A stretch of DNA of 63,872 bases, filler included, from Folioceros fuciformis (lineage: Eukaryota), in the NCBI GenBank assembly GCA_049999805.1. It is 32 parts of 32 records of this genome, joined end to end, with 100 filler letters (N's around TTAATTAATTAA, not from the genome) between each part and the next. Parts side by side here need not be neighbours in the genome. Positions count along the whole stretch, not along the records: positions 1 to 11,957 come from JBNGIO010003817.1; 31 more parts are not named here. One strand, written 5' to 3'. The translations under genes were made by a program, and so were the position numbers. How positions within the stretch are numbered: position 1 is the first letter of the stretch; each line of letters starts with the position of its first letter. Positions 102 to 60,960 of the stretch are shown piece by piece. The notes beneath the pieces were generated by a model. It was given only the letters and a program-made list of their open reading frames with translations. It was not told the origin of the DNA and ran no database searches.

Positions 102-660
102 GTTGACGTCGTATAAGCCGTCCAGGCCGTACATGCAGCAGATGCTCCTCTCGCCCATCTTGCATTTCCGTTTTCCCAAATTACGAAAATGGTGCCTATA
201 AACACGAAAATACATCCACGGTACATGCGGGATGCCAAGTGCTAGTAGGACCACACCCTAGAGACGTCCATGGGTACATGGTACAGACATATGCAGAGAT
301 GGTATGTGAGGGACGTCGAGTATTCCCAAAAATATCCAGCGGGAAGGTGTCCACGTAGGGGGGTCTATCCAGGGCGCGGCCAATGAGGAGGCCGTGGCTA
401 CGCGCGCGGGGGTTTGGGTTTGGGTCCGGATCCGTGCCCACTGGAGGAACGCCAAATTGGCCAGCAGCGCAGAATCAGCACGCCAGCACTAGTACTAGGG
501 ACAGGAGCAGTAGCCAACGGCGGCAGGCCGTAGCCAGCAGCCAGCTCGCCTACACCGAGGACCCTGTCTTGTTGCTTGTGTGCTGCCCCTGAGCGCGGGA
601 TTAGCCCATGTGGGTGGCCCTGGCAGGCTGACGAGCGAACATTTTGTCAGCTCGCCAGCC

Positions 661-1548
661 ATGGCTACCGCCACGGTGACACTGCTGCCTTGTGGGGGGC
701 GGGGATTGCACAGTGGCGTACCTGTGGTGCGCACGTCGTGGGCTGGAGATGGCGGAATTGCGGGATTGCACATCCCCGGAAGCGGAGGAGGTGGAAGCGT
801 GAGCCTGATCTCGAGGACGGGGTCAAGGATCCGGTGTCGGAGGGAGAAGCTTGTAGCAGAGCCGGGATCCGAGGAGGAGGTAGAGGCGGAGGGCGGGGGG
901 GTGGAGAACGGAGCGGAGGAAGAGGCTGAGGGAGGGGAAGGGGAGAATGCGGTGCTCAGGCTGCGCGTCCTTAGGCTGCGGGCGCTCAAGCGGGCGGCGC
1001 TCATCCGGGAGATTATGGTGAGGCGGCAGCTGCTGCTGGCGTCTTCCATGGTTGTCGGGGTGACGCTGTCCACGGCGCTGGCGCCCTGGGTACCGGATCT
1101 GCACGCGGTGGCGGCGTTTCTGGAGGATATCCCCGAGCTGGCGAACGAGCGGGAGCTCCGGGGGCAGCCCTTGGCGCTGCGGGTGCCGCTTCCGGGTAGG
1201 AGCTCGGCCGCGGCGTTGGAGGACGAAGAGCCGGAGGAGGTACTGGTGATCGCGGTGAAGGTGCTGCGGGGCCGGCCGCTGCAGTTCGACGTGTTCCTCA
1301 ACCTGCCGGATGCCTCGGACCGGACGCCCTCCAGCTGCGCCGAGTACGTGGGCTCCTTCTTCAACGAGCCGCAGTCCGCGGCTCCGGACGAGTACCGGGA
1401 GGCGGTGCTGCGGCTGGGGATCACGGATACCCTGAATCAGCTGGGGCTGGGGAGGGCACCCTCCGTCGTGGTGAGCATTGTGCCTCGCGGCCAGGGCACA
1501 CCGGCCTGCCCCGTCGTCGTCAAGGGAATTAGGGTGGAGTTTGAGTGA
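661..1548 (+). CDS. Intronless protein: transit peptide + twin-Arg (Tat-like) signal + polyphenol oxidase C-terminal (PPO1_KFDV-type) domain; no tyrosinase domain
   Basis: First ATG at 661 in ORF 580-1548. The C-terminal EEVLVI..QFDVFLN..AEYVGSFFN..LRLGITD..SVVVSIVPRG..KGIRVEF matches the plant PPO KFDV domain. RRQLLL + hydrophobic stretch + ALA begins at 1021. Confidence 0.85.
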   Translation: MATATVTLLPCGGRGLHSGVPVVRTSWAGDGGIAGLHIPGSGGGGSVSLISRTGSRIRCRREKLVAEPGSEEEVEAEGGGVENGAEEEAEGGEGENAVLRLRVLRLRALKRAALIREIMVRRQLLLASSMVVGVTLSTALAPWVPDLHAVAAFLEDIPELANERELRGQPLALRVPLPGRSSAAALEDEEPEEVLVIAVKVLRGRPLQFDVFLNLPDASDRTPSSCAEYVGSFFNEPQSAAPDEYREAVLRLGITDTLNQLGLGRAPSVVVSIVPRGQGTPACPVVVKGIRVEFE

Positions 1549-1681
1549 CCTTGGATTGGATTGCCCCTTCTCGGCTTCCGGAGTGGAGATAGTGTAGGAG
1601 CGATTCACAATGCAGGAGGACAAGGGACGGGGAAGCGCATTGCGGTCCGATTGCGTACCTACTACACGTATGTATGAATTT

Positions 1682-4600
1682 CTAGTACTTGCACCAGGGG
1701 GGCTTCTTGCCCGGACCCGGGCCCGGGAGCGGGGGCAATGGCATTGACATGGAATGGGCTCTTTCCTCCTCTCCGCTATAGCCTTCCTTGAGCCGGAAGA
1801 TCTCGGATCTCAGCAGGTCTGCGTACTGGGATCCCAGGCATGGCTCTGCGCCTGCAGCTTCACCGTGGTGGTGTCCAGTTCTTCCGCAGGAGTGGACGCG
1901 GCTGGAAGGAGTCGGGGGATTGCTTGCCGCCGGCAAGGGCTCCACTTTCACGTTACAGTCTCTGGAGATCTGTACAACGCAATCCACAGGTCTGGTGTTG
2001 CTGCTCTCTTGTTCAGCTGCAACGGCGCATGTGTCGGAGCGTCTTAAGGCGCTGCCGGCGCTGTTTCTGGCACTCGCAGGTCGTCTTCTTACAGTTTGCG
2101 GGGATATGAAGCTGGAGACAGTCGTCCTGTGTCGTTTCTCAGGTGCCTGCAACTGTTTTCCAGCTTCATTCAGGGCCCTGGCCAAGTCGTTGCATACTTC
2201 CCAGATGGCGTCCAGCGACTTTTTTGCACATGATCCTCTATCGCTGAGGTGTGGGGGTCTCTGTGTATACTTGTATCTTGCATTGCCAGGCTCGTCCTTT
2301 CGATTCTGGAATTTGCAAGTGGCTGCATTTAGATGGTAGCATAAAATTCAAAGCTCCATGCAGAGAACCATGTTTTCCTTCTGAGGAGGTGGTGATATTC
2401 TTACGTTGCGATGGAGGGTCTCGAATTCGTTTGTGACCAGTCCCTGTAGGTTCCGTAGCTCCTCCTGCAGGAAGCACAACACCATCGGTTAAACTTTTGT
2501 TCACGCGACTCATGGGGCTGTGTGGTTGACCGTGTGAACAAGCCAAAGGTATTCCCAGTTTGTGCGGCAATTGTGCGCATTACCTGCAGACCCTTCAAAG
2601 CCCTGGCGGTGACGGTAGTACCGAGATTCTCCTCGTTGTGATGGAGAGCTTGCCATGATGCCTGTCTGGTTGGGTCGTGGCTTCTACCGTTGTCGAAGGT
2701 TACTGTGCTTCCAGGTGGGTGCTGCTGGTAATCAGGGCCAACTCCACTCACAGTTGCCCGTAGCCTCCCACTCGAACCCCTCGCTTGTAAACTTCTTCCA
2801 TTCTTCGTGTGCTGAGCAGGATGGATTCGCTGAACTTTCCTACCGACGTGAACCTGAACTCCAGGGGCAGAGGCCCAGTGACTTGGGTTGAACCCTTCGA
2901 GTACAGACGGTGCCCACTCTGATGTCGCAGAAGCATATTCTGCAGTTAGAATTTCGTCAGCCAGTCTTTTCTTGCCGGATCGGAGGACACTTCTGTGCCA
3001 AATGGAAAAGAAACGCTCCAAACGCCTTCTCTCTCCCACCCTGCGGATCCACCATGGAAGAGCTGCCATCAGTCCGTCTAAGGACTGCTGAGAGCACATA
3101 GCCCGTCTCTCATGTTTCTTCATCCTTGTGTAGGCGCGCCAGGCTGTTAGGACCAAAGGCAAAAGCTTGTGACTCTCAAATGAGTTCCCACCAGGAGGTG
3201 AGCTCTCCAGCGTCCTCTCCTGTTCAAGCTTCGCAACCTCCCGTGTCAAGCGCTGCTTCAATAACTCCAAACTACAAACCTGTCTGAACAACCGTTCCGC
3301 CCTGGCTGTCGCCACAGCCCACCTCCATCGCCATGTTACCCACCTTTCTCGTTCTGGTGCTGCGTTGCCAGGATCCTTCCCTCTCAACCCTATCGCAGAT
3401 TCATGTGGCCTTGGATCTTCATCCCTTCTGGACCTCACAGGCTGTCCATCTTTGTCTCGGAACAAGACCATTTGCTTCTCATCTGCTGTCAGCAGTGTCC
3501 CAGCATGGTCACCATTCCTCTCCGCAGGCTGGAATATTTCAGAGGTATGTTCCTCCTTCGTCGACTCAAACAAGCACCTGTCTGGTGGCAATGGTGCACT
3601 GGAGACGAGGTCTTGCCTCTCTTCTGGAAGAGAAACGGAGGTTCCCATGCAACGTCTGTCAACAGATTGCAACTGTGAAGTTGAAAGACCCTTCCTCGCC
3701 ACATTTACGCCCCCAAGTTTTCCATCTTCAAGGTTGCTTTGGCTTTGCACACCATGAGCTTGTATCGACTTGTGAGGAAAAACACGAGACTTCGTTGCAG
3801 CCCTTCCTTGCCTATTGCCGAAGTCGATCTTCTCACCAAGAGGTAAGCCACTCTCTAGGCTCTTACTCAGTCTGCTCCCAGGACGAGCTGAGCCATGATC
3901 CACTGTGTTTTCCAGCTCTCGCATGTGCCCTGTCAGCAGTTTCAAATGCTGTATTATCTCGGCTGCTACATTTTCTGAGGCCCTGGCATGCGTCTCTGCG
4001 GCACAGTTTATCTTCTCCTGCAGCTCCTGGTGAACGAGCAATCCAACGTGATAAGGCCAGCTGAGATACTAAATCAAGATTCAACTTCAGGAACCTTGCA
4101 TCCCCTGTCATCAGGCATGTGACCTACCTCGGCATGCCTTGATGACATATCTGCCTGTTCAGTTGCTCTTGCGAGCTCGACTACCAGGTTTTCCTTATCA
4201 CGCAACAAGCCATCGCATCTTTCCATACAAGTGGCTAGCTCCATCTGCAAATGGCTACACATAAGAAAGTGCAGAACCGAATCTTTTTTTTCAGCCACTA
4301 GCTTTGATGAAGGGCACCTTGTTGGTGCTAGAGCTCAGATCGCTGTACCTCTGCTTTAAGCTTTGCACCTACAGTCTCTTTCAGCTTCTCAGCGTTCCTC
4401 TTAACCTCTGCTACGTGCTCTGACCTAAGCACCTCCATTTGCTTCTCTTGAGAATTTTGCCGTTCCGCCATGCGAATGAGAGCAACACGAAGCTTTTCAT
4501 TCTCCTGTGACTGCGATGCAACCTCCTCATCCCTGCGAGCAAGCTGGGCCAAAGCCAACCACGTGTTAAAGATGATATGATCATCATTCTCCTTCGTGAA

Positions 4601-5745
4601 GTGGACACAGGGAACACAGTCTCTCTACGAACCAAATGACCATTGAAGCCACTTGCGGGCAAGTCACGCCTACCTGATCTAGAAGCACACGGACTTCCCC
4701 AAGAGCACCCTCTTTCTCACTCTGTAGGGTTGCAATGTCCCCACGCAGTTTGCCATCAACTCGGCGAGTTTCCTCTTCCATCATCTTTAAACTTGAACTG
4801 AGCCTCTGAATTTCGGCATTTTGGTGACGAAGTTGCTGCTCAGTCTCGGATACCTTCTGCTGTGCCTTTGCCAGGCGTTTCTGTAATTCATCAACCTGCA
4901 ATGCATTGACACCGAGCAAACTTCTTTCAATAACTCGTAAAAACAGGGTACGCCATGACATCCGAGTACACTCCAACATACATCGATGTGCTTGTCTGCC
5001 AGACTGCATCTATAGGTGTTCGAAAGTTGGGCTCGCATTTGGGCCATATCCGACATTGCTCGAGAAAGATGCAAATCTCGGGTGGCAATTTCCCGTTCCA
5101 AATTTGCAAGACATTCGTCATCGTGTTTCACCTCCCTAGTCACTTTCCTCAACTCGTGATGAAACAGTTTCTGCACGAATACACAACATTAGCAAGATCC
5201 ATGCTTCCCCCATCGGTCTTTGAAGCAAGCAGCGACCTTCCTCAAAACCCTACCTTCAATTGATACTGCCTCCACCGCTGAAAAGCCAGCACCGCTGCCA
5301 CTATCCTCACAGAATCCGTTGTCTTGCTCTGCAAATCTTGCTGAATGGTATCGGAAGATCCCGACAGAGACCATCTGTAGACAGCCATCGAATCATCTTT
5401 ACCCGGGCAAGTCCAATGCCTGACTGCTCGCTGCGCGTCATCTTTAACAGATCTGTGCAGTTTCTTGCTCTTTTTGCTCTTCGTCCGCCTGGAAACCTGA
5501 TCGTTGGTAGAGGAGCATGATGAGTTGCCTCCTCTCCGAAACTTACTCTCGGCGAACGAAACGTCTTTCTCAGACACACCACGTTCTTTTCCCGGCACAG
5601 ACTCCTTCTCGCCATGGTCAGCCGTACTGCCGGACTCCTCAGCCCTGACGGCCTGGCTGCGGGCATCCGACTTTCCGGACTCACTCTGATCCCCAACGCT
5701 CCCGCTGTGGAGGGAGGATTCTAGACCAGAAGGTCCATCCTCCAT
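1682..5745 (-). CDS. Large multi-exon coiled-coil protein with Trp-containing helical motifs (Sfi1/POC5-like, tentative)
   Basis: Successive minus-strand ORF segments are bounded by GT-AG sites (donor after 5254, acceptor before 5170; VDELQKRL.., MELATCMER.., ELQEKINC.. long exon; last exon ends at TAG 1682). The sequence has E/K/R/Q/L heptads. The start position is uncertain. Confidence 0.7.
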
Positions 5746-6730
5746 GTGTTCCACGCCCTTCTCAACTCAACCTAATTCGCCCGACCTGGCACACAAGCCA
5801 TCCCGTGCAGATGGGGAGCCCCCCGTCGAGGTGCTCCTTGAGTCTTCCCTCGGCATCTTGCGAGCATCCACATTCCTCAACCCATCCCGTGCCAAGCACG
5901 GCGACATGCTTGCGGACCCTGTCCTGCAACATGTGCCGACAGTGCTTCCTGCGACAGCTTAATTCATCCCGTGAGCTCACTCACTGCAGCTTCACATCCC
6001 TCACAGAGTGCACGACGGCAGTTGAGACGCCCATGTGGCTCAGGAGAGGGTATGCTGGAGATCGTAGGGGGCAGTTACAGGAAGGGAAGCAAAGACATCC
6101 AGACCGTAGGAGCCATGTGGCTGAGCGACCGAAATCCGAGGAGAACCCCGACACTCGAAGCAGTAGCAGGAGGAGTGATGCCTGCTCCGACCTGAAGAGG
6201 TCGAGAGTGCAGACCTATGTATGTACTACCCACTAATTCCGAGAGAGAAGGGGAAGGAGACAGTTGAGATGACAGTCCCACTTCCTGTTGTCGGGACGGA
6301 TCTTTCGCCAATAAGGATAACGGTCATGTACTCTTTAGGTGGCGGGAAACCGCGGATCCGAAACGTTATGTTAGATGAACCGTCTTTGGTAAAGAACAAT
6401 TTGCTTTGACTTCACAAACTTGGATTATGGCCATCTATGGTGGACCAACACCTGTGGGCAACTGAGTGTGTTGTCTAGAAAAAGAGCAAATACTTAAACT
6501 CGTGGAAACAAGACCTGGACATATCGAGAGCAGTTTACAGAGTTTGTCGTTTGAGAAAACGAACACCTTCAGGACGTGTGTCGTGGGACTAGCTCTGACC
6601 CTTTGCACCTTTAAGAGTACATCTCATCAAAGCAGCCCTCTCAGCTGTTGCACTGACGAATACTTGTAGAGCACGCCTGCCAGCATCCTCCAGATTGCTG
6701 CGAGGTTGAGCATATAGCACAGTGAGACAC

Positions 6731-8388
6731 TCAGCGGCTTCGTCTTCTCTTCTTAAGGCGTTCGAACACGTCGTAGATGTCGTCACTCGTGATTGCCCTT
6801 CCTGATTCAGCTATGGGTGTCTGCATAGGATCCAAACATATCAGAATCTCACGCTATTAACTACCTTCTGGGAAAGGGTGAAAGGTCGAAAAGTGCTACA
6901 ATTACTGACCAGAAATGACGTCAGTCCTGATGCCATCTCCCTGATGGCATTGATAAACTCAATTTGCTCCACATGGCCCAGGTTTTGAATGAAGTTTCGC
7001 TCAGCTCCCTCTTGCCTCTGTATGTTCTCTTCCCGTTTGATTCTTGCCATCTCCTCGTAATCGGCTATAGAATCGCCCTCCCGAAGAAGGAAATCCAGAC
7101 CTTTGGAATTGTACAAAGCAAAGCATTCAGCACACTGGCAGAGATGTGATCTCCAGCCCTTGCACAGAAAGATGGCCTTGTCTGTGCCCAACGATGGCTT
7201 CTCCTGAGCAGAAACGTTTTGTTTTAACCTACACCTCACTGCAGGCGCTGCAGCATCAGGCGATGTTGCCGCGGCAGGATGCTCTGTCGGGGTTAGCTCA
7301 TGACCCGGCGCTCCACTACCTGCCACACCGCTCCCGGCATCTGAGCCACTGTCTGCACTGACGAGTGGAGCTTCTGAACCATCCGCCACTGGCTCCTCAG
7401 GGACGGCATCAGAGGCCGGCTNNNNNNNNNNNNNNNNNNNNNNNNNNNNNNNNNNNNNNNNNNNNNNNNNNNNNNNNNNNNNNNNNNNNNNNNNNNNNNN
7501 NNNNNNNNNNNNNNNNNNNNNATACACAAGCAACTCAGGATAATTCACCAGGAAATCACATCGTAAGCGGATGCAACCCTGACAGATCACGGCCTCGAAA
7601 TCATCATCTTCCTCTTTCAGCCCCTACAAAGTAACAAGAACAAATGGCGGTCAGACAACACAGCAGAATTACGCACCAGAGAAGCGAGACTGGACAGGAA
7701 AATCACCTCTCCCGTTTCCTCCTCAGGCACTAAACCCAAGTGGGCCTCGTGAAACCAATCCTCACAGATGCAGCACTGAAGCATCTCGCCAACACTCGAC
7801 TCAGCATCGGGATCCGGATACGGCCGACGGCACGAGCAGTACGTCCCAGAAAAATTCTGATTATAGCTGTTTTCCTCATTCTCCCTCTCCTTGTGCTTGT
7901 CAAGCTTACACTCTACCCCACCAAACTTCGAGTTTCCGCAGTCGCAGCGGAAATGCCTCTTGGTCCATAGCTCCACTACCTAACCACGCACACTAAACAT
8001 TCAAATCCATGACAAAAAATCTCCAGCATCAGCCCCACCGCTGCTTCTCAACACACGCAAAACAAACCTGCCGAGTGGCACACCTGGTGTCCTTCATGGC
8101 AAGTTATGGAGCAGGCTGTGCAGCACCCAGCATTTCCTGCTGGCGTGCAGGTTAGGCACGAAAACACGGCCTGCCGCACCATATACCCTTTGCTATATGT
8201 GCAGTCCTTGCCATCGTCGGCACCAAGAACCATGTCTGCGTTCTGCACCATCCAAGGACGGCCATCAGCACAGCCCAAGACTCCTCCCACCAACAACCCG
8301 AGAACAAAATCAGCGTAGACCAACTCACAAGTTCCGCATCTATAAGCTCCTGAACTGTGAAACCGACATCGCCCTCCTCGTCGTCCAT
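6731..8388 (-). CDS. UBR7: UBR7-type E3 ubiquitin ligase (UBR-box zinc finger + PHD-like finger), ~5 exons, internal N gap
   Basis: CTYSKGYMVRQAVFSCLTC..CTACSITCHEGH / VELWTKRHFRCDCGNSKF / YNQNFSGTYCSCRRPYPDP / MLQCCICEDWFH / WRSHLCQCAEC. The last exon reads ..ITSDDIYDVFERLKRRRSR* and ends at 6731. The start may lie slightly upstream. Confidence 0.93.
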
Positions 8389-9426
8389 ATCGCCTACCGC
8401 CGGCAAGCTCTGCGAAACCGTGGTTGTCACCTCCTCCTATTTCCTACTCTAACGCCCAAACCCACCCACCGCTGGTAGATGGCAGCCCATACCTCTTCAG
8501 CCTCTGCCTGATGAGTCCGGGGGCCCGGGCACCCCTTCCGTTCAACCCGCAGCCCAGGATCCCCTTACCGCACCCTACAGGCACAGTCAGACTCTACGGG
8601 TCGAGGGTCCTCGACTTCTAGCAACGGACATGTTCAGATGGCGCGGTCCACAGCACAACCCACCAGACATGCGGCAGCTGAGGCTCGATGTGGCGGTGCC
8701 CACTCAACCAGAGTCGGCAGCACGGAACGGACAAGTAGTGTAAACAAAGACAGGTGGAGGGAAGGAGGGAGGGAAGGGGGGAAGGAGCCCGGCCCGGGAG
8801 GAGGGAAAAAATGGCGGGAAGCGATCGACGTCACGGCCCGTAGTATGTGTACACAAGCGTGGGTCTTGGGATGTGTGTGTGGGTCACGGACAAAGGGCAA
8901 AGGCCGGCCTGGGGCCCGTAACGTTCCACCCCCCGCTTCCTTTGTGTAACTTTCATGCCATGCGAAACTTTCAACTTCCCATGCTTTACCGGGAAGCTGC
9001 CTCCGCGGGGGAGCTCTGGACCCCTCGGCAGTTTTGCGCGTGTTTGATTTTTGCTAGGTTCTAACACGCGGTTTGTTGAATGAATTGAAGTCTCTCTCTG
9101 TCTCATTTTTTCGGGCTACGTGATCGCGTTTGGTGGGCTGGTTGCGGTGTGACGGGATTGTCCGCGTTGGGTGGTGAGTTTGCGCTGTGGCGAGATTGTG
9201 GGCTTCGGGTGGTTCGTTTGCGCCGTGACGAGATTTTGGGCGTTGAGGTGCATGACGCGGTGGGAATTCTTTCATGTGTTGGGTTCCTTAGAGGTGGCGT
9301 GGCTTGAATTTGGGCACACTCGTCAGCTGATAGGAGATTCCCGGTGCAAGGACGGGAGGACGTGACACAGCTCCAGTGCTCCCCGTGTGTGGATGGAGGG
9401 CTTTGGTGAAGTTCAGGAGGAAGATT

Positions 9427-11957
9427 ATGGAACGTCGGTGGAAGCAAGCCATTGCTTTGTGTCTGATGCTGACGTGTTTAGCCCTTGTGCTAGGGGGTAT
9501 CAGAAGCGAGGACGGCGGGTTTGTGCAGCGTGCTCTTTCAGGGGCATTTAGGACAGGATTTAGGAGGGGTTGCAAGTTCGTGGATTTGGATTCAAGGGAG
9601 TATTGGTCAGGGTTGTCACACATTTCTCTGGGCAGCAGGGTGCAGGTAGAGGCGGAGTTTGTGTATGCTGAGCACGTAGGGGGCAGTGATGGCAAGCAAG
9701 TGGACCCAGTTTTGGGAAGGAACAGTTCTGGTGGGCTGGACCAACGGAGCGTGATTCGTCCATCAGCATGGCTGCGTGGTTCTAGGTGGTCTGCATCGAG
9801 GAATTTGTTCTCTGAAGATTCTAGTTTATACCCTCCATCCCCATGGTCGAGACCTACGCCTTCTTCAGTGGATTATGGACTGGAGGCATCCATTTTATCC
9901 TCAGGTGACCAGCTTTTTGCAGGAGGATCTGACCCCAGGGTTCTCCTGGACATTCCTATCCCTCGTCTGCCAAATCCGTTTGATAGCTCACACTCTGCCC
10001 CGTCGCCAGGAACGCCGTCTTCCCAACTTGTTGTTTCGCCAGCAAGTTCTCCTTCCCCACCTGCAGTTGCGCCAGCAGCTTCTCTTTCCCCACCTGCTGT
10101 TTCGCCACCAAATTCTCCCTCCCCGCCTGCTGTTGCGCCACTAACCTCTCTTTCCTCACCTGCTGTTTCGCCAGCAACCTCGCCTTCCCCACCTGCTGTT
10201 TCGCCACCAACTTCTCCTTCCCCACCTGCTGTTGCGGAACCCCCTGTAGGTGGGGGTGTGAGTAATTCTCCGAGTGCTGCTCCCGGGGTCGTGGTACTAC
10301 AGGGCAGATCAACTGGTACAAGCAGTGTGACAGCAGTGGCAGTTTCAGTTCCTATTACTGTGATTGTCACCCTTGCGGCTGTGTTTTTCTTCCTCCGTTG
10401 TTATGGGAAAGCTCCCCTAGTTCAGTCTCAAGGAGCAGCAGGAGAAAAGGATGACAATCCTCTTCTTCATGCAGGTTCTTATTTTTTCAGATCTAGTCCT
10501 CTTTCAAGCCAGCACAGGTACAATGGAAGTCCCAATTCTCCCAATGCTGCTACTGCAGGGACAGCCCCGATTTCTGCAGCGACAGAGAAGATGGGGAATG
10601 ACAGCAGGAAAGGAGGAAGGAAGAATACAGCAGCTGCTGGGAATGTTCCGAATGGGGAACATTTGGGATTTGATGGAGTCAGTGGTGAAGGTCCAGAATC
10701 TCTACACAGGACAACACCTGCTTACATGAAGACCTACTCCTTGCCCGCTGCATCAATGCTCGATGTCCCAGCTAGACCTCTGCCACTTCCTCCGGAGTCC
10801 GTAGCCTCTCCTCGCCAGAAGCAGCCTAGTGTTTTTGGTAATGGATCGGTGCCTCTGCCATCTACTTTGGATGTGTCACCTCTATCAGAGTTGAAGATGG
10901 CCTCATCAGCATCCATTCCTGTCCACAACTTCGACCGCAAAGGTTCCCCTCCCGGCAGGCCTGTCTCACTGAACGGTCCCCTGTCTGGCCAGTCAGGAGC
11001 ACAACCTCTGCCTCTTACAGTCCCATCTTTCACGCCGCCGCTGGCTCCACCACCCTCTCTTCCACGCCCTCCCTCTGTGGTTTTTTCTGCAACAGCCACA
11101 GGTGCGCCACCACCTCTTCCTGGTGCTTTGCGTCCCAATGCTATCTGGCCGCCACCTGCTCCGTCTCAAGCCCTACCTGCCCCTCTGCTACCCTTGCGTG
11201 ATGGGCAACCTGCTTGGCCACCTCCTGTTCCTCCTCCAGTCCAATCCAGACCTGACCCTCCTCCTTTGCAAGCTGTCTGGCCACCTCCTGTTCCTGTAGC
11301 GGCACCTGAACCCCCACCTGCACCACTTTCTGTGCAGGCTACTTGGCCACCTCCTGCCCCTGCAGGACAAGCTCAACCCCCACCTGAACCACTTCCTTTG
11401 GAGGCTGCTTGGCCACCTGCAGCTCCTGCAGGAACAGCCCAGCTCCCTCCTCCACCCATTGCTTTGCAGGCTTTTTGGCCACCTGCTTCTCATTCATCAA
11501 CCTCACCACCACCCACTGACTTGCCCTCACATGCCGCAGGGCAGGCTGTGATGTCACAACCACCAGCTCATCCTGGTACTGCTACTGAGACTGAACTGTT
11601 TCCTCCTCCTTTGAATGCTACTGTCTCACCAGCAGCAGCAGCACCTCATCCTCCTCCTTTGCGTTCCAGTTCTTTTGCAAATGCACCCCTGCCACCACCT
11701 CCTCCTTTGCATGGAAATTCTCCAGCCCCACCACCACCACCACCTCCTCCTACCCCTCCTCTACATTTCAGTGCTGGGCCTCCACCGCCCCCTCCTCCTC
11801 TGCGTTCCAATGGTGCTGCGCCTGCTTCCTCACCATCACCTCCTCCTCCTCTACAGTCCAATGGTGTCGGGGTGCCTGCTCCACCTCTATCTCCTCCGGG
11901 GGGACGAGGTGCTCCACCCCCTCCTCCACCGCCTCCACCACCGCTTCCTTCCGGAGG
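9427..11957 (+). CDS. Class I (transmembrane) formin-like protein, 5' part; truncated by scaffold end before FH2
   Basis: Signal peptide (MERRWKQAIALCLMLTCLALVLG), Pro/Ser-rich ectodomain, TM (AVAVSVPITVIVTLAAVFFFL), post-TM DDNPLL motif as in class I formins, and poly-Pro FH1-like tracts. FH2 is not visible. Confidence 0.75.
10030..10240 (+). repeat. ~33-bp coding tandem repeats (SPPAV[AS]Pxxx, ~6 units), extensin/AGP-like ectodomain
   Basis: Recurrent CCTGCTGTTTCGCCA/CCTGCTGTTGCG units in the formin ORF. Confidence 0.85.
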
Positions 11958-12057
11958 NNNNNNNNNNNNNNNNNNNNNNNNNNNNNNNNNNNNNNNNNNN
12001 NTTAATTAATTAANNNNNNNNNNNNNNNNNNNNNNNNNNNNNNNNNNNNNNNNNNNN
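11958..12057. other. Artificial scaffold-joining linker (44N-TTAATTAATTAA-44N); first of 31
   Basis: The identical 100-bp linker has its 12-mer at 12002, 14339, 16489, 18103, 20079, 21312, 22523, 24783, 26093, 27561, 28993, 30221, 31443, 32655, 33851, 35082, 36493, 38384, 40642, 42422, 44611, 46912, 48323, 50269, 51615, 52859, 55417, 56950, 59496, 61005, 62774. TTAATTAATTAA places stops in all six frames. Confidence 0.98.
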
Positions 12058-56783: not shown

Positions 56784-59551
56784 ACCTCTCTCTGGCCCCG
56801 GAGTCTAGGGACTTACACAGGACCCTCCCCATCCTGCCCGCTCTCTCCGTCCGCTCGCTCGCTCGCTGCTCTGCTCTGCTCTTCTCTTCTCTGCTCTCTG
56901 CTCTCNNNNNNNNNNNNNNNNNNNNNNNNNNNNNNNNNNNNNNNNNNNNTTAATTAATTAANNNNNNNNNNNNNNNNNNNNNNNNNNNNNNNNNNNNNNN
57001 NNNNNACCCCGCTCCCAGTAGTGGGTACTGACTTCCATCCTTCCTAACCAGGCAAAAGGGCGGTCTCCCAAGGACACAGGCAGAAAGCAGTACACCCTTT
57101 CGGCCTGGCCTGTCCTGGACTAGGTCGGCAGCGCAGCAGCCCAAGCACGCAAGCACCCCAAGCACGCTCACACACAAACAGACCAGCAGGCAGACAAGAT
57201 CAAACAGAAAAATGCACCTTTGCAGGCCACTTGGGATGCCCCTTCACTTTAGCCAGCACCAACTCCCCGATGCGCCAGTCCTGCTTCGTGGGAGCCAAAG
57301 CGACAGCCGGGAGCACTCCCCCACCCCGGCCCCTGCCTCTGCCCCTGCCTCTGCCCCTGCGGGCAGGCGCCATACTTAAGGGCCACCACCCACAAAAGCA
57401 AGGGCACCCCGGCCGCGGTCACGAGAGCTCCGCAATGCTCACCCTCCTTTGCAAGAAGGCAGGAGCTTCATCCGCCACCGCATCCAGCTCCAATTCCCCA
57501 ACCTGTGCCTCACCTCCCGATCCCACTGCTCTTGCATGGAGCAAACCCTGGCGTGGCTATGGCACCCGCACCTGCGCCCCCTCCTCCGCTGATCCTCCTC
57601 CACTTCGCCTGCGATTCGAGTGCTGCAATCGGCAACACTGCGATGCCCCGNNNNNNNNNNNNNNNNNNNNNNNNNNNNNNNNNNNNNNNNNNNNNNNNNN
57701 NNNNNNNNNNNNNNNNNNNNNNNNNNNNNNNNNNNNNNNNNNNNNNNNNNCCTCACTTCATGTGATGCCTCGTCCTGGTCCTGGTCCTGGCCCTGGCCCT
57801 GGCCTGGCCTGGCCTGGCCTATCTCGTACCGCACCTACCCTACGTCTCTACCTTAGCGCCGATATCATAATACATATATATATAAGCACAAACAAGAGCG
57901 TCTCGGCGCTTGCCACTCTCCTAATTCGGATCCCTCTGACCTCTTCTTCCCAAATACTTTCACATATCCTGTACTACGATTTCTTCGTGCATAATTACTA
58001 CCTCACTCCAACCTTTCCTTTTCTTCACTTCACTTCCCTCTCCAAGATTGGAGCCCTCTTTCTGTCCATTTGATTGGAACGTCACTCTCAACACATGCTA
58101 CCAAGGCCGGACTTGGAATATTTATGGCTCGGATCTATTGATGCACACATATGTGTCACAGATAGGGTAGCTGAAACCATACCACAATATTGTTTTTGTG
58201 TTGGATTATTGTCAGGTCGAGACTCATGGCTAGTTGTCTTTCATTGTCGGAGGAGATGGCCATGGTTAGTTGTCTTTCATTGTCAGAGGAGGCGGTCGCG
58301 CGCCCTATCATAAATGTCAAGAGAACTTTGTGTACAAATATGTGTTCAAGGTCGTTTTTGAGGACAAACTTTGTGTACAAATATGTGTTCAAGGTCGTTT
58401 TTGAGGACACGAGGTATGTACAACTGCAATGTCGTTTTTTAGGACTAGGGATTCTTTGCTGTTCAGAAGTTTTGTCCGTTGTTGTCTATTGTAGGCATTA
58501 TTCGCCGTATCTTGGTCATTCTTCCACATTGAGCATAGTGGTAGTACAGTACTTGAAGCCATAGTCGCTCTTCAAAACTGACCCTTGTCCTGATCATTCT
58601 TCCACATTCAGGTGGGTGCTGTACTGTACTTGGAGCCATCGTCACTCTTCAAAACTGTTTATATACAACACAGTCACTCTTCAAAACTGTTTATATACAA
58701 CACACACCACACGTTCACATCCAGGTCACTCTTCAAAACTGTTTATATACAACACACACCACACGTTCACATCCAGGTCGTTCTTTACAACTTGAGGTAG
58801 GTTGACGTACTCCAAACCTCTCTTCTCATAAGTGCAGTACTGTGGATAGTTGCAGGTGTATTTGTCACAAGTGCACTACATGGGACGGCTCCACAACCAC
58901 TATTCAAAACCATTCATATACACAACACATTCATATTCAAATCAATCTTCGCAACTCGAGTTAGGGTGACATCCTTCAAATCACTCTTTAAGAGCGTGTT
59001 CACATCCAGGTCGTAGGTTGACATATTCCAAATCACATTTTAGGACCATATTCACATTCAAGTCTGTCTTCACAACTTAAGGTATCACTCGAAATCACTC
59101 TTCAGGTTTCTTCATTCCCCATAACAGTTGGTAGTGCTCTTGATATATATGTGCAAGTGTACATGCCACAGATGCAAGACATGTGTACTTAGGATGGCTC
59201 TCCACACAAAGTTTGTTCGTTGATATATATGTGCAAGTGTACATGTCACAGATGCAAGACATGCGTACTTAGGATGGCTCTCAAGACAAAGTTTGTTCGT
59301 TGTTGGGAGCTAGCAGCGACTTGCAGGAATGGGTGCGTACTTAGAACATTACACATTATTAAAATGCACCATGTAAATAGTTGAGTCGTTAGAACCACTC
59401 TTTTAAGACCAAGTTGTTCATTGTTGGAGATAGTAGCAACTTAAGGCTAGGNNNNNNNNNNNNNNNNNNNNNNNNNNNNNNNNNNNNNNNNNNNNTTAAT
59501 TAATTAANNNNNNNNNNNNNNNNNNNNNNNNNNNNNNNNNNNNNNNNNNNN

Positions 59552-60960
59552 CCCGGGGGAGGAAATCCAGCAACTCTATGGGCCCGAAGAGATCGTTGTC
59601 ATGGAGCTTCCATGTCGCGAAGAGCGTGATGAGGGTGTTCGCCTGCACGTTCTGAAATTGTGTTCCGTTCGGGAAGAGCTGGAGGAAGAGCTGCACCCTC
59701 GGCCCCGCCTGCCAGGTATAGTTCCGGACGTACACCAGGGCGACGGGAAGCTGGATGTTTCCGTTGGTGGCGATGGAGATGGCGTCCGCGATGTGGCTCT
59801 CGAAGCTGCTCACCAAGGGCGCGAACAGGGAGAAGCTGGGGCTCTTGAGCCGGAGGCGGAGCGTGATGGGGAGCTTGCAGTTGCAGGCCTGGCCGGCCGC
59901 GGCCCACGAGTACTGGAACTGGCCGGGGCACGAGAGACCGCTGCACCCGCTCGGATCTCCCAGCGACGACCCGTCGGAGTCCAGGACCAGCGGGGGAAAC
60001 AAGCTCTCGTCCTTCTGGTTGCAATTTTCGGAGTTGGCGAAGCTGCCCGAACATACAGGGTTCCCGCTCAGCCAGAGCGCGATNNNNNNNNNNNNNNNNN
60101 NNNNNNNNNNNNNNNNNNNNNNNNNNNNNNNNNNNNNNNNNNNNNNNNNNNNNNNNNNNNNNNNNNNNNNNNNNNNNNNNNNNGGAGAGATGGGAGGGGG
60201 CCTAGTTCTAAGCCGCTGATGTCCTGGGAGAGGTTGTTGGAAGAGAGGTAGATGGAGGTGAGGTTGGGGAGGGCGAGCGCCGGAAGGCTGCCGGAAAGGG
60301 AGTTCTGGCTCAGATCCAATAACCTGAGGGAGGGGATGTTGCCGATGCCGGGGGGGATTTGGCCCTGGAGATGGCATCCCCGCATGCTGAGCTTGACGAG
60401 GGCCGGGAACTTTCCGGGTTGGCCGAAGGAGCTGGGGATGGGCTGCCCGGCAAAGGGGTTGTTGTCGACCTGGACAATTTCGAGAGTGGAGCTGTTGGCG
60501 AGGTCGGCGGGGATGATTCCCGTTAGCTGGTTGTTGTCCACCAGGAGATGAAGTGCGTTCGGGAGAGAGCCAATTCCTGTCGGAATGGTGCCGGAGAGGG
60601 AGTTGTTGTTGAGGTGGAGGTGCTGGATGGCCAGCAGGTTGGTGAAGGAGGTTGGAATCTGCTCGGTGAAGTTGTTCTGGTCCACCTGCAGCCGGATGAG
60701 GGTCGCTAGCCGGCCCAGTTCCGCAGGGAGCGGGCCTGTCATGTTGTTCCCGCTCAGCAGCAGGAGCTGAAGCAACGCGAGATTGCCGATGGAGGATGGT
60801 AGACTCCCCGAGATGTTGTTCCACATCAAGTCCAGCGTCACCAGGTTCGTCAGATCCCCGACCTCCGGGGCGAGCACGCCTTGCAACCCCATGCGGAAAA
60901 GACGAAGCTCAGTCACCGTCCCCACTCCCTGCGCATTTTGCTCGCAAATCACCCCCGCCC
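59552..60960 (-). CDS. LRR receptor-like kinase ectodomain, LRR-VIII-1 (At1g06840-like), partial
   Basis: Plant LRRs (LDLMWNNISGSLP, LLLSGNNMTGPLP, LQVDQN, HLHLNNNSLSGTIP, HLLVDNN, IVQVDNNPF, KLSMRGCHLQG). The juxtamembrane island has WLSGNPVC..RLKSPSFS..WQAGPRV..FGPIELLDF. Confidence 0.9.

Follow-up and report, generated by a model that had tools for sequence, protein, structure and literature searches.

Positions 661 to 1548 on the plus strand of the window, by which we mean the whole 63,872-nucleotide stretch of Folioceros fuciformis DNA analysed here (32 parts of assembly GCA_049999805.1, joined by filler), hold a gene for a polyphenol oxidase (PPO) lid without its enzyme. The 295-amino acid (aa) product, P0001, is a stand-alone PPO C-terminal lid domain placed behind a PPO-type twin-arginine signal, and it has no catalytic domain. 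The gene is real and nuclear, and its source is a land plant, as an ALE2-type receptor-kinase domain elsewhere in the window shows. It is one member of a class of stand-alone PPO lid proteins that evolved more than once and has so far gone unrecognised. The structural part of this description had been proposed in an earlier note made from the DNA alone, and it stands. As to function, by analogy with the lids of known PPOs we favour, with a probability of roughly 0.4, a separately encoded lid that would be delivered to the lumenal side of the thylakoid and bind PPO cores in trans.

Reading frame and transcript

The open reading frame (ORF) at 661-1548 (+) runs without interruption from an ATG in the context gCCATGG. 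Its G+C content at third codon positions (GC3) rises from 0.63 over the first 60 codons to 0.87 in the domain, with 0.81 for the frame as a whole. The earlier note had described just such a single frame, strongly GC3-biased and with no intron or gap, and contigs derived from RNA are colinear with it. These contigs come from X1, a run of a 2017 study labelled 'RNA?'; two further runs, X2 and X3, are DNA from a different study (2025). The X1 contigs omit at least six short CT..AC-ended stretches in the minus-strand neighbours (e.g. 4025/4127 and 4244/4349) that X2 and X3 retain, and X1 is therefore spliced RNA. Two X1 contigs, at 445-913 and 889-4025, span the gene; they match it with 0 differences and contain no joint. 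X4, a likewise spliced run of a related species, contributes a 206-nucleotide (nt) contig that spans 602-767 with 9 differences.

The colinearity of X1 with the ORF excludes a mis-join or an intron within it, including the region of ~1100-1200 where the earlier note had wondered about a deletion. That assembly or annotation took out a catalytic domain by deletion or mis-join is scarcely credible. No support for it was found; the X3 DNA unitigs do break at 1096/1103, but a contig from a separate study passes through this point without a difference, and the close relative described below, P0002, has the same architecture on contigs of its own.

The stretch covered by RNA contigs includes an in-frame TAG at 511-513, so this transcript cannot gain an N-terminal extension or an upstream catalytic exon. 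Residues 100-118 are conserved and lie upstream of M119, the only internal methionine ahead of the signal, which places the translation start at the ATG at 661. The 5' untranslated region (UTR) contains a 7-codon out-of-frame upstream ORF at 608-631. Sense transcription of the gene is likely. Its transcript-level features are as follows.

445..660, plus strand: probable 5' UTR; the X1 RNA-derived contig starts at 445
661..1548, plus strand: intronless coding sequence, 295 aa plus stop (P0001); no joint within the RNA-derived cover 445-4025
1549..2400, plus strand: 3' region, common with the 3' end of the convergent minus-strand gene; X1 contig 889-4025, then splicing of the minus-strand pattern

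The convergent neighbour occupies 2401-5766 (-) and has at least five introns of 83-130 nt with GT..AG ends on the minus strand; its 555-aa terminal exon is without a Pfam match. One RNA contig links this gene to the P0001 region, so their 3' ends overlap or abut.

Domain content and fold

In Pfam, searched at E<=10, the sole family matched by P0001 is PF12143 (PPO1_KFDV), with a score of 75.1 bits (E 6.9e-21; the gathering cutoff is 26). The match spans residues 175-294 and positions 13-130 of the 130 in the profile. Neither Tyrosinase (PF00264) nor PPO1_DWL (PF12142) is matched at that threshold, in keeping with the earlier note, which had seen no CuA/CuB catalytic domain and expected a profile search to return KFDV only. 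Catalytic PPO sequence is absent from the whole 63.9-kb window: six full-length PPOs compared with it by tblastn align to 994-1545 only, that is, to the C-domain and its linker. The domain and its two altered motifs, one of which has the Gln in place of the usual His that had already been pointed out, lie at the following positions.

1183..1545, plus strand, residues 175-295: PPO1_KFDV beta-sandwich domain (Pfam, PDB sequence matches, AlphaFold2, Foldseek)
1282-1293, plus strand, residues 208-211: QFDV, replacing canonical KFDV
1363-1374, plus strand, residues 235-238: NEPQ, replacing canonical NVPH

The nearest PDB sequences, at E ~1e-9, come from apple MdPPO1: 6ELT and 6ELV hold its C-terminal domain by itself, and 6ELS holds it as part of the pro-enzyme; tomato PPO and aurone synthase come after them in the ranking. 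The AlphaFold2 model of P0001, for which an alignment of 55 KFDV-only proteins was used, has a mean predicted confidence (pLDDT) of 72, with values of 89-98 at residues 190-295, 72-88 in a helix at 93-131 and below 55 at residues 1-90. Foldseek finds 6ELT as the best match to the model (E 1e-8, TM 0.74 normalised to the target), then 6elv, 6els, 6hqj and 4z11, while generic beta-sandwich modules such as carbohydrate-binding modules (CBMs) and GOLD domains rank far below the PPO lids. From residue 142 onwards the protein comprises 154 aa, with a mass of 16.7 kDa, a pI of 4.6, one His and two Cys.

Signal, linker and N-terminal regions

Ahead of the domain the protein falls into five parts, the second to last of which is the hydrophobic segment of the signal.

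661..843, plus strand, residues 1-61: transit-peptide-like N-terminus, Ser/Thr/Gly/Arg-rich with 1 acidic residue in the first 60; disordered, pLDDT <50
844..951, plus strand, residues 62-97: acidic Glu/Gly-rich stretch, by composition; the acidic character is also kept in the relative
952..1026, plus strand, residues 98-122: amphipathic helix, basic, with the twin arginine at its end; part of the modelled helix 93-131
1021-1026, plus strand, RR at residues 121-122: twin arginine of RRQLLL, from the sequence
1027..1083, plus strand, residues 123-141: hydrophobic segment QLLLASSMVVGVTLSTALA; h-region of the twin-arginine translocation (Tat) type with ALA cleavage motif, or retained membrane anchor
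1084..1182, plus strand, residues 142-174: linker, homologous to the PPO inter-domain linker before the C-domain

The order of RRQLLL, hydrophobic segment and ALA given in the earlier note is correct, with RR at 121-122, the h-region at 124-141, ALA at 139-141 and Pro142 directly next. A spacer between ALA and the KFDV domain is present as well, but at 19 aa (from ALA141 to the HMM envelope start at 161) to 33 aa (to the Pfam start at 175) it is shorter than the ~40 aa proposed. The 19-residue Kyte-Doolittle maximum of P0001 is 1.74, at 124-142, compared with 1.0-1.4 for the PPO transfer domains in the match set, and the 25 aa ahead of the hydrophobic segment include 8 basic residues.

Residues 146-175 align with 449-485 of P0028, a full-length PPO from the hornwort Nothoceros, which is the linker before its C-domain. 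The gene thus reads as a PPO with the signal fused straight onto the end of the inter-domain linker. Another origin was considered for the first residues of this stretch, in which 'ALA-PWVPDL' would be left over from the N-terminus of mature PPO; it was rejected because 146-175 align better with the inter-domain linker.

A close relative and its pattern of conservation

A HMMER search of 1.84 billion cluster representatives gave 94 relatives of P0001 at E<=1e-3, of which 14 also reach <=1e-10 and just 1 reaches <=1e-30. There is a single close relative, P0002 (289 aa; P0096 is a 301-aa variant of it), which has the same architecture and is identical to P0001 at 128 of 194 aligned residues (66%). 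The remaining stand-alone relatives have 25-45% identity, and the nearest named C-domains are those of Nothoceros, P0003 (53% identity) and P0006, which would suit a hornwort as the source. Word-based homologue searches, which were dominated by low-complexity words, recovered only P0002, or P0014 and P0002, and metagenome scans produced 596 pattern matches with no relative among them. Identity between P0001 and P0096 varies along the protein.

Transit-like part, residues 1-61: 11/61
Acidic part, residues 62-97: 8/36
Basic helix, residues 98-122: 19/25
Hydrophobic segment, residues 123-141: 18/19
Linker, residues 142-174: 24/33
Domain, residues 175-295: 68/121

Such regional differences fit selection on the protein. 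They differ from those in the fern-type clade of stand-alone proteins described below, where the signal is less conserved than the domain (11/31 versus 91/132, and 5/31 versus 67/132). The fern-type pattern is the one expected of a cleaved signal, and in P0001 and P0002 it is reversed. Together with the Pro after ALA, the hydropathy of 1.74, the 8 upstream basic residues and the continuous modelled helix, this reversal suggests that mature P0001 may keep its hydrophobic segment and be anchored by it, either to the thylakoid membrane or, with type II topology, to the endomembrane system.

Taken as a full account of the protein, this would make P0001 bitopic, with its charged N-tail on the cis side and its lid on the trans side of either the thylakoid or, by way of a type II signal-anchor, an endomembrane, the latter being the predicted route of bryophyte PPOs. 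We regard that as a decidedly unlikely outcome. The near-identity of segment 123-141 (18/19, against 68/121 in the domain) favours it, as do a hydropathy above that of PPO transfer domains, Pro142 immediately after ALA, the cluster of basic residues and the predicted continuity of helix 93-131. Cleaved PPO transfer signals, however, have this same RR-x-L-L plus AxA layout, the Pro at +1 would be avoided if the cut fell elsewhere, for instance between STA and L, and the contrast in conservation rests on one relative. The proposal concerns anchoring and compartment and is compatible with either of the functional readings weighed below.

Recurrence of the stand-alone architecture

Of the 94 HMMER matches, 38 also have Tyrosinase and/or DWL parts by Pfam; KFDV is the sole family in the other 56, about 30 of which have a twin-arginine signal immediately ahead of the domain. 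For classification, 99 domain rows were used, drawn from the 94 matches, P0001 and three cluster mates, with the second domain of each of two tandem proteins added. A protein was counted as stand-alone if it was KFDV-only, started with Met and had at least 50 residues upstream together with an RR-hydrophobic signal. By these rules 33 rows are KFDV-only with an RR signal and 38 are attached to catalytic parts; 25 are short fragments that are not assignable, and 3 are other KFDV-only forms. The angiosperm stand-alone forms among them are counted from database gene models as deposited, in which exon skipping is possible. Examples are these.

Selaginella moellendorffii: XP_024522943 and XP_024536271, stand-alone KFDV, database name 'uncharacterized protein'
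Ceratopteris richardii: KAH7294253, stand-alone KFDV, UniRef name 'Polyphenol oxidase C-terminal domain-containing protein'
Psilotum nudum: EP00249_P032147, stand-alone KFDV
Wollemia nobilis: A0A0C9S718, stand-alone KFDV
Asimina: KAL5978416, stand-alone KFDV
Beta: KMT04311, stand-alone KFDV
Escallonia: A0AA88V7A9, stand-alone KFDV
Rhizophora and Mucuna: stand-alone KFDV, the Mucuna protein being a tandem of two units

All the stand-alone KFDV proteins in the databases are unnamed or auto-named. They resemble P0001 in having a twin-arginine signal followed by a linker and the KFDV domain, with no catalytic domain; they differ from P0001 and P0002 in that the long acidic-plus-basic region before the signal occurs only in these two. 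Literature searches on stand-alone KFDV proteins found no paper, and neither did a search combining Anthoceros with PPO. The land-plant PPO survey of Tran (2012) states that models without CuA/CuB or shorter than 1200 bp were discarded. Surveys of this kind removed such genes, and the recurrence of stand-alone lids consequently went unremarked.

Two variations on the architecture were seen. P0011 (Mucuna) and P0027 each consist of two signal-plus-lid units in tandem, and P0015 (234 aa), which groups with Nothoceros fragments, represents another stand-alone type, in which an RRQLLL signal is combined with an unchanged canonical VPH.

Phylogeny of the domain

In a tree of all 99 rows, made with a quick search, P0001 pairs with P0002/P0096 (SH-aLRT 89), and the pair is sister (SH-aLRT 92) to a clade (99) of Psilotum, Ceratopteris and unnamed proteins, the fern-type clade, which consists of stand-alone forms or fragments only. 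A smaller, author-chosen set of 38 of these rows takes in everything from the non-seed side plus 8 seed-plant rows; its bootstrapped tree supports the P0001 pair at 99/94, the fern-type clade at 99/99 and their joining at 52/93. A Glu before the Pro of the V-P-H motif position (EPQ, EPR, EAE) is exclusive to the P0001 pair and the fern-type clade. These comparisons suggest a common origin of the two groups, whose sisterhood is not robust.

If the 14 stand-alone rows in the 38-row set, a group defined after inspection of the tree, are constrained to be monophyletic, the log-likelihood drops by 141.7 units, and the approximately unbiased (AU) test rejects the constraint (p 0.0003). A single origin being rejected, the stand-alone architecture arose repeatedly. 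In the 99-row tree the stand-alone/attached label needs 15 changes, at least 10 of which are forced by well-supported branches, and by the evidence of these trees the angiosperm stand-alone forms arose separately from the P0001 lineage.

P0001 might instead be a decaying remnant of a PPO gene, transcribed but functionless, like the truncated rice paralogues that are seen as pseudogenes. Truncated PPO genes are common; a study of rice describes its truncated PPOs as proposed pseudogenes and treats them as products of birth and death (PMC12876524). Many angiosperm stand-alone forms, moreover, adjoin full-length PPOs in the tree, as recent deletions would. For P0001 itself we find this highly improbable, because its ORF is intact with a domain GC3 of 0.87, the predicted domain structure is confident, and the best trees place it with a conserved stand-alone clade. 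The 66%-identical relative, too, retains the frame, the signal and the domain despite an almost fully diverged N-terminus.

A proposed lid acting in trans

We propose that the gene arose from that of a PPO by loss of the whole stretch that separated the thylakoid-transfer signal from the linker ahead of the C-terminal lid. Descent from PPO is supported by the alignment of the linker with the PPO linker and by an RR-hydrophobic-AxA layout that is the same as in PPOs, whose signals are described by Tran (2012). Judging by its homology with PPO targeting, P0001 would be imported into the plastid and would then cross the thylakoid membrane by the inherited Tat route, so that the acidic 16.7-kDa beta-sandwich would land on the lumenal side. 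There, cleavage close to ALA141 might release the lid, or the hydrophobic helix, with its unusual conservation, might hold it to the membrane. By analogy with attached lids it would most likely dock in trans onto the substrate-entry face of PPO catalytic domains, where it would either maintain the latency of processed enzyme or take the place of the lid that the enzyme itself carries and so tune activation.

The analogy comes from apple PPO. There, an independently expressed C-domain is reported to fold alone and like the cleaved one; after self-cleavage the C-domain remains bound, and the enzyme is latent until salt or SDS strips the domain off; and addition of free C-domain accelerates self-cleavage of the pro-enzyme (PMC6563526). 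On these findings a free lid could either inhibit or promote activation.

Several observations weigh against this proposal. P0028, the only full-length hornwort PPO among the matches, has a signal of the secretory type at its start, and Tran (2012) predicts secretion for moss PPOs, so that lid and enzyme might occupy different compartments. The twin-arginine features RRQLLL, h-region and ALA are present in P0001, but the Pro at +1 of ALA, the hydropathy and the 95% conservation of the segment speak against a simple cleaved signal. P0001 deviates from canonical C-domains at both conserved motifs (QFDV for KFDV, NEPQ for NVPH). The strand of the RNA is not readable from the contigs, and the 889-4025 cover is one contig in common with the convergent neighbour. 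The architecture is widespread in databases, so the earlier note's worry that it belongs to an already characterised family is half justified; the family is, as far as those entries go, uncharacterised. Finally, a copper-chaperone role like that of MelC1, the Streptomyces protein compared below, is disfavoured by the composition of the protein. Tran (2012) mentions the hypothesis of a third copper site formed by His residues after the V-P-H motif; P0001 is without those residues, which argues against such a role, its predicted mature part having one His and the canonical His being Gln.

The altered motif can also be read as a sign that the domain has been repurposed. It would still be delivered to the lumen, but for a job unrelated to PPO, with another lumenal protein or ligand, and its PPO ancestry would be only history. 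The derived E-P-(Q/R) in place of V-P-H, common only to the P0001 group and the fern-type stand-alone clade, is in favour of this; so are the long-term conservation of the fern-type clade, which implies a function of its own, and the generic binding modules (CBMs, GOLD) among the weaker Foldseek matches. PPO lids are nevertheless by far the nearest structures, no result points to another partner, and independent, repeated signal-plus-lid origins in PPO-bearing lineages are explained more easily by a retained ancestral partner. On balance we judge repurposing to be somewhat unlikely.

A wider version of the trans-acting lid may also be entertained, unlikely as it is when taken as a whole. Plants would repeatedly have split off the PPO lid as a lumen-targeted trans regulator of latency, in the lineage of P0001 and in ferns, lycophytes, gymnosperms and angiosperms, with the canonical His of V-P-H recurrently replaced, often by Gln. 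The P0001 subtype would be membrane-tethered by its conserved helix, and with its charged tail on the opposite side it could couple stromal conditions to lumenal PPO activity.

Reviews describe the in vivo latency and activation of plant PPOs, and the roles of the C-domain beyond shielding, as questions that are still open. Naturally free, separately targeted lids would give a direct handle on both, since one can express and localise them, knock them out and combine them with PPO cores. Should these lids prove unrelated to PPO, non-seed plants would gain a new family of small lumenal or membrane proteins.

The His-to-Gln position

At the column of Q238, His is found in 30/38 attached domains and 9/33 stand-alone ones, and Gln in 1/38 and 13/33, respectively. 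Phylogenetic control reduces these rows to 5 independent pairs, with His lost in 3.2 and gained in 0.1 on average (median p 0.25). A link between the loss of His and the stand-alone form is thus not established after phylogenetic control, and we treat it as a lead. A role for the motif His as a plug of the active site was considered and rejected: the corresponding loop of latent tomato PPO, Leu447-Thr459, which by alignment begins at the L-P-H motif, is reported to be disordered and solvent exposed (PMC6411738).

Comparison with known systems

The closest known counterpart is the lid of apple MdPPO1-type pro-PPOs (PF12143; 6ELS, 6ELT, 6ELV), which has the same domain family, the same fold, the same kind of preceding linker and a similar N-terminal targeting layout. 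P0001 differs in being unattached to a tyrosinase or DWL domain, in its QFDV and NEPQ motifs, and in a hydrophobic signal segment that is far more conserved than is usual.

MelC1 of Streptomyces, to which the earlier note had likened P0001, is also separately encoded, covers the active site of a tyrosinase and has a Tat signal (PMC11608171). The two have no sequence or family relation, since PF12143 is the only Pfam match of P0001 at E<=10 and the MelC1 caddie belongs to PF06236. MelC1 loads copper and shares an operon and an mRNA with its enzyme, whereas P0001 has no linked PPO gene in the window. Plant PPOs carry a signal of their own.

Small single-domain paralogues that regulate their multi-domain relatives are known as microProteins, and the known examples act on transcription factors in the nucleus. 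P0001 would be like them, by analogy only, in being small, with a single interaction domain that came from a larger protein, and in the repeated evolution of its kind. We know of no microProtein that is the lid of an enzyme.

Other features of the window

The window begins with a perfect 7-bp microsatellite (ACTCCCG, 14.4 copies, 1-101), at which the contigs of all three runs of this organism break, with loose ends that differ. A run of 100 N at 7422-7521 lies in a spliced minus-strand gene at about 6400-8800; an RNA-derived contig has 22 letters between the same flanks, so the true gap is short. An 891-aa single-exon ORF at 9334-12009 (+) has no Pfam match and contains 33-nt and 66-nt tandem repeats (10019-10233 and 11250-11484), within which RNA and DNA contigs step back 66 or 83 bases, indicating a copy number different from that of the window. 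The G+C content is strongly uneven, dropping from 63% over the opening 2 kb to 20% between 40 and 42 kb, and the window thus has GC-rich genes amid AT-rich surroundings. Towards its far end, an ORF at 59496-60908 (-) encodes a receptor-like kinase ALE2 N-terminal domain (PF23180, E 2e-7).

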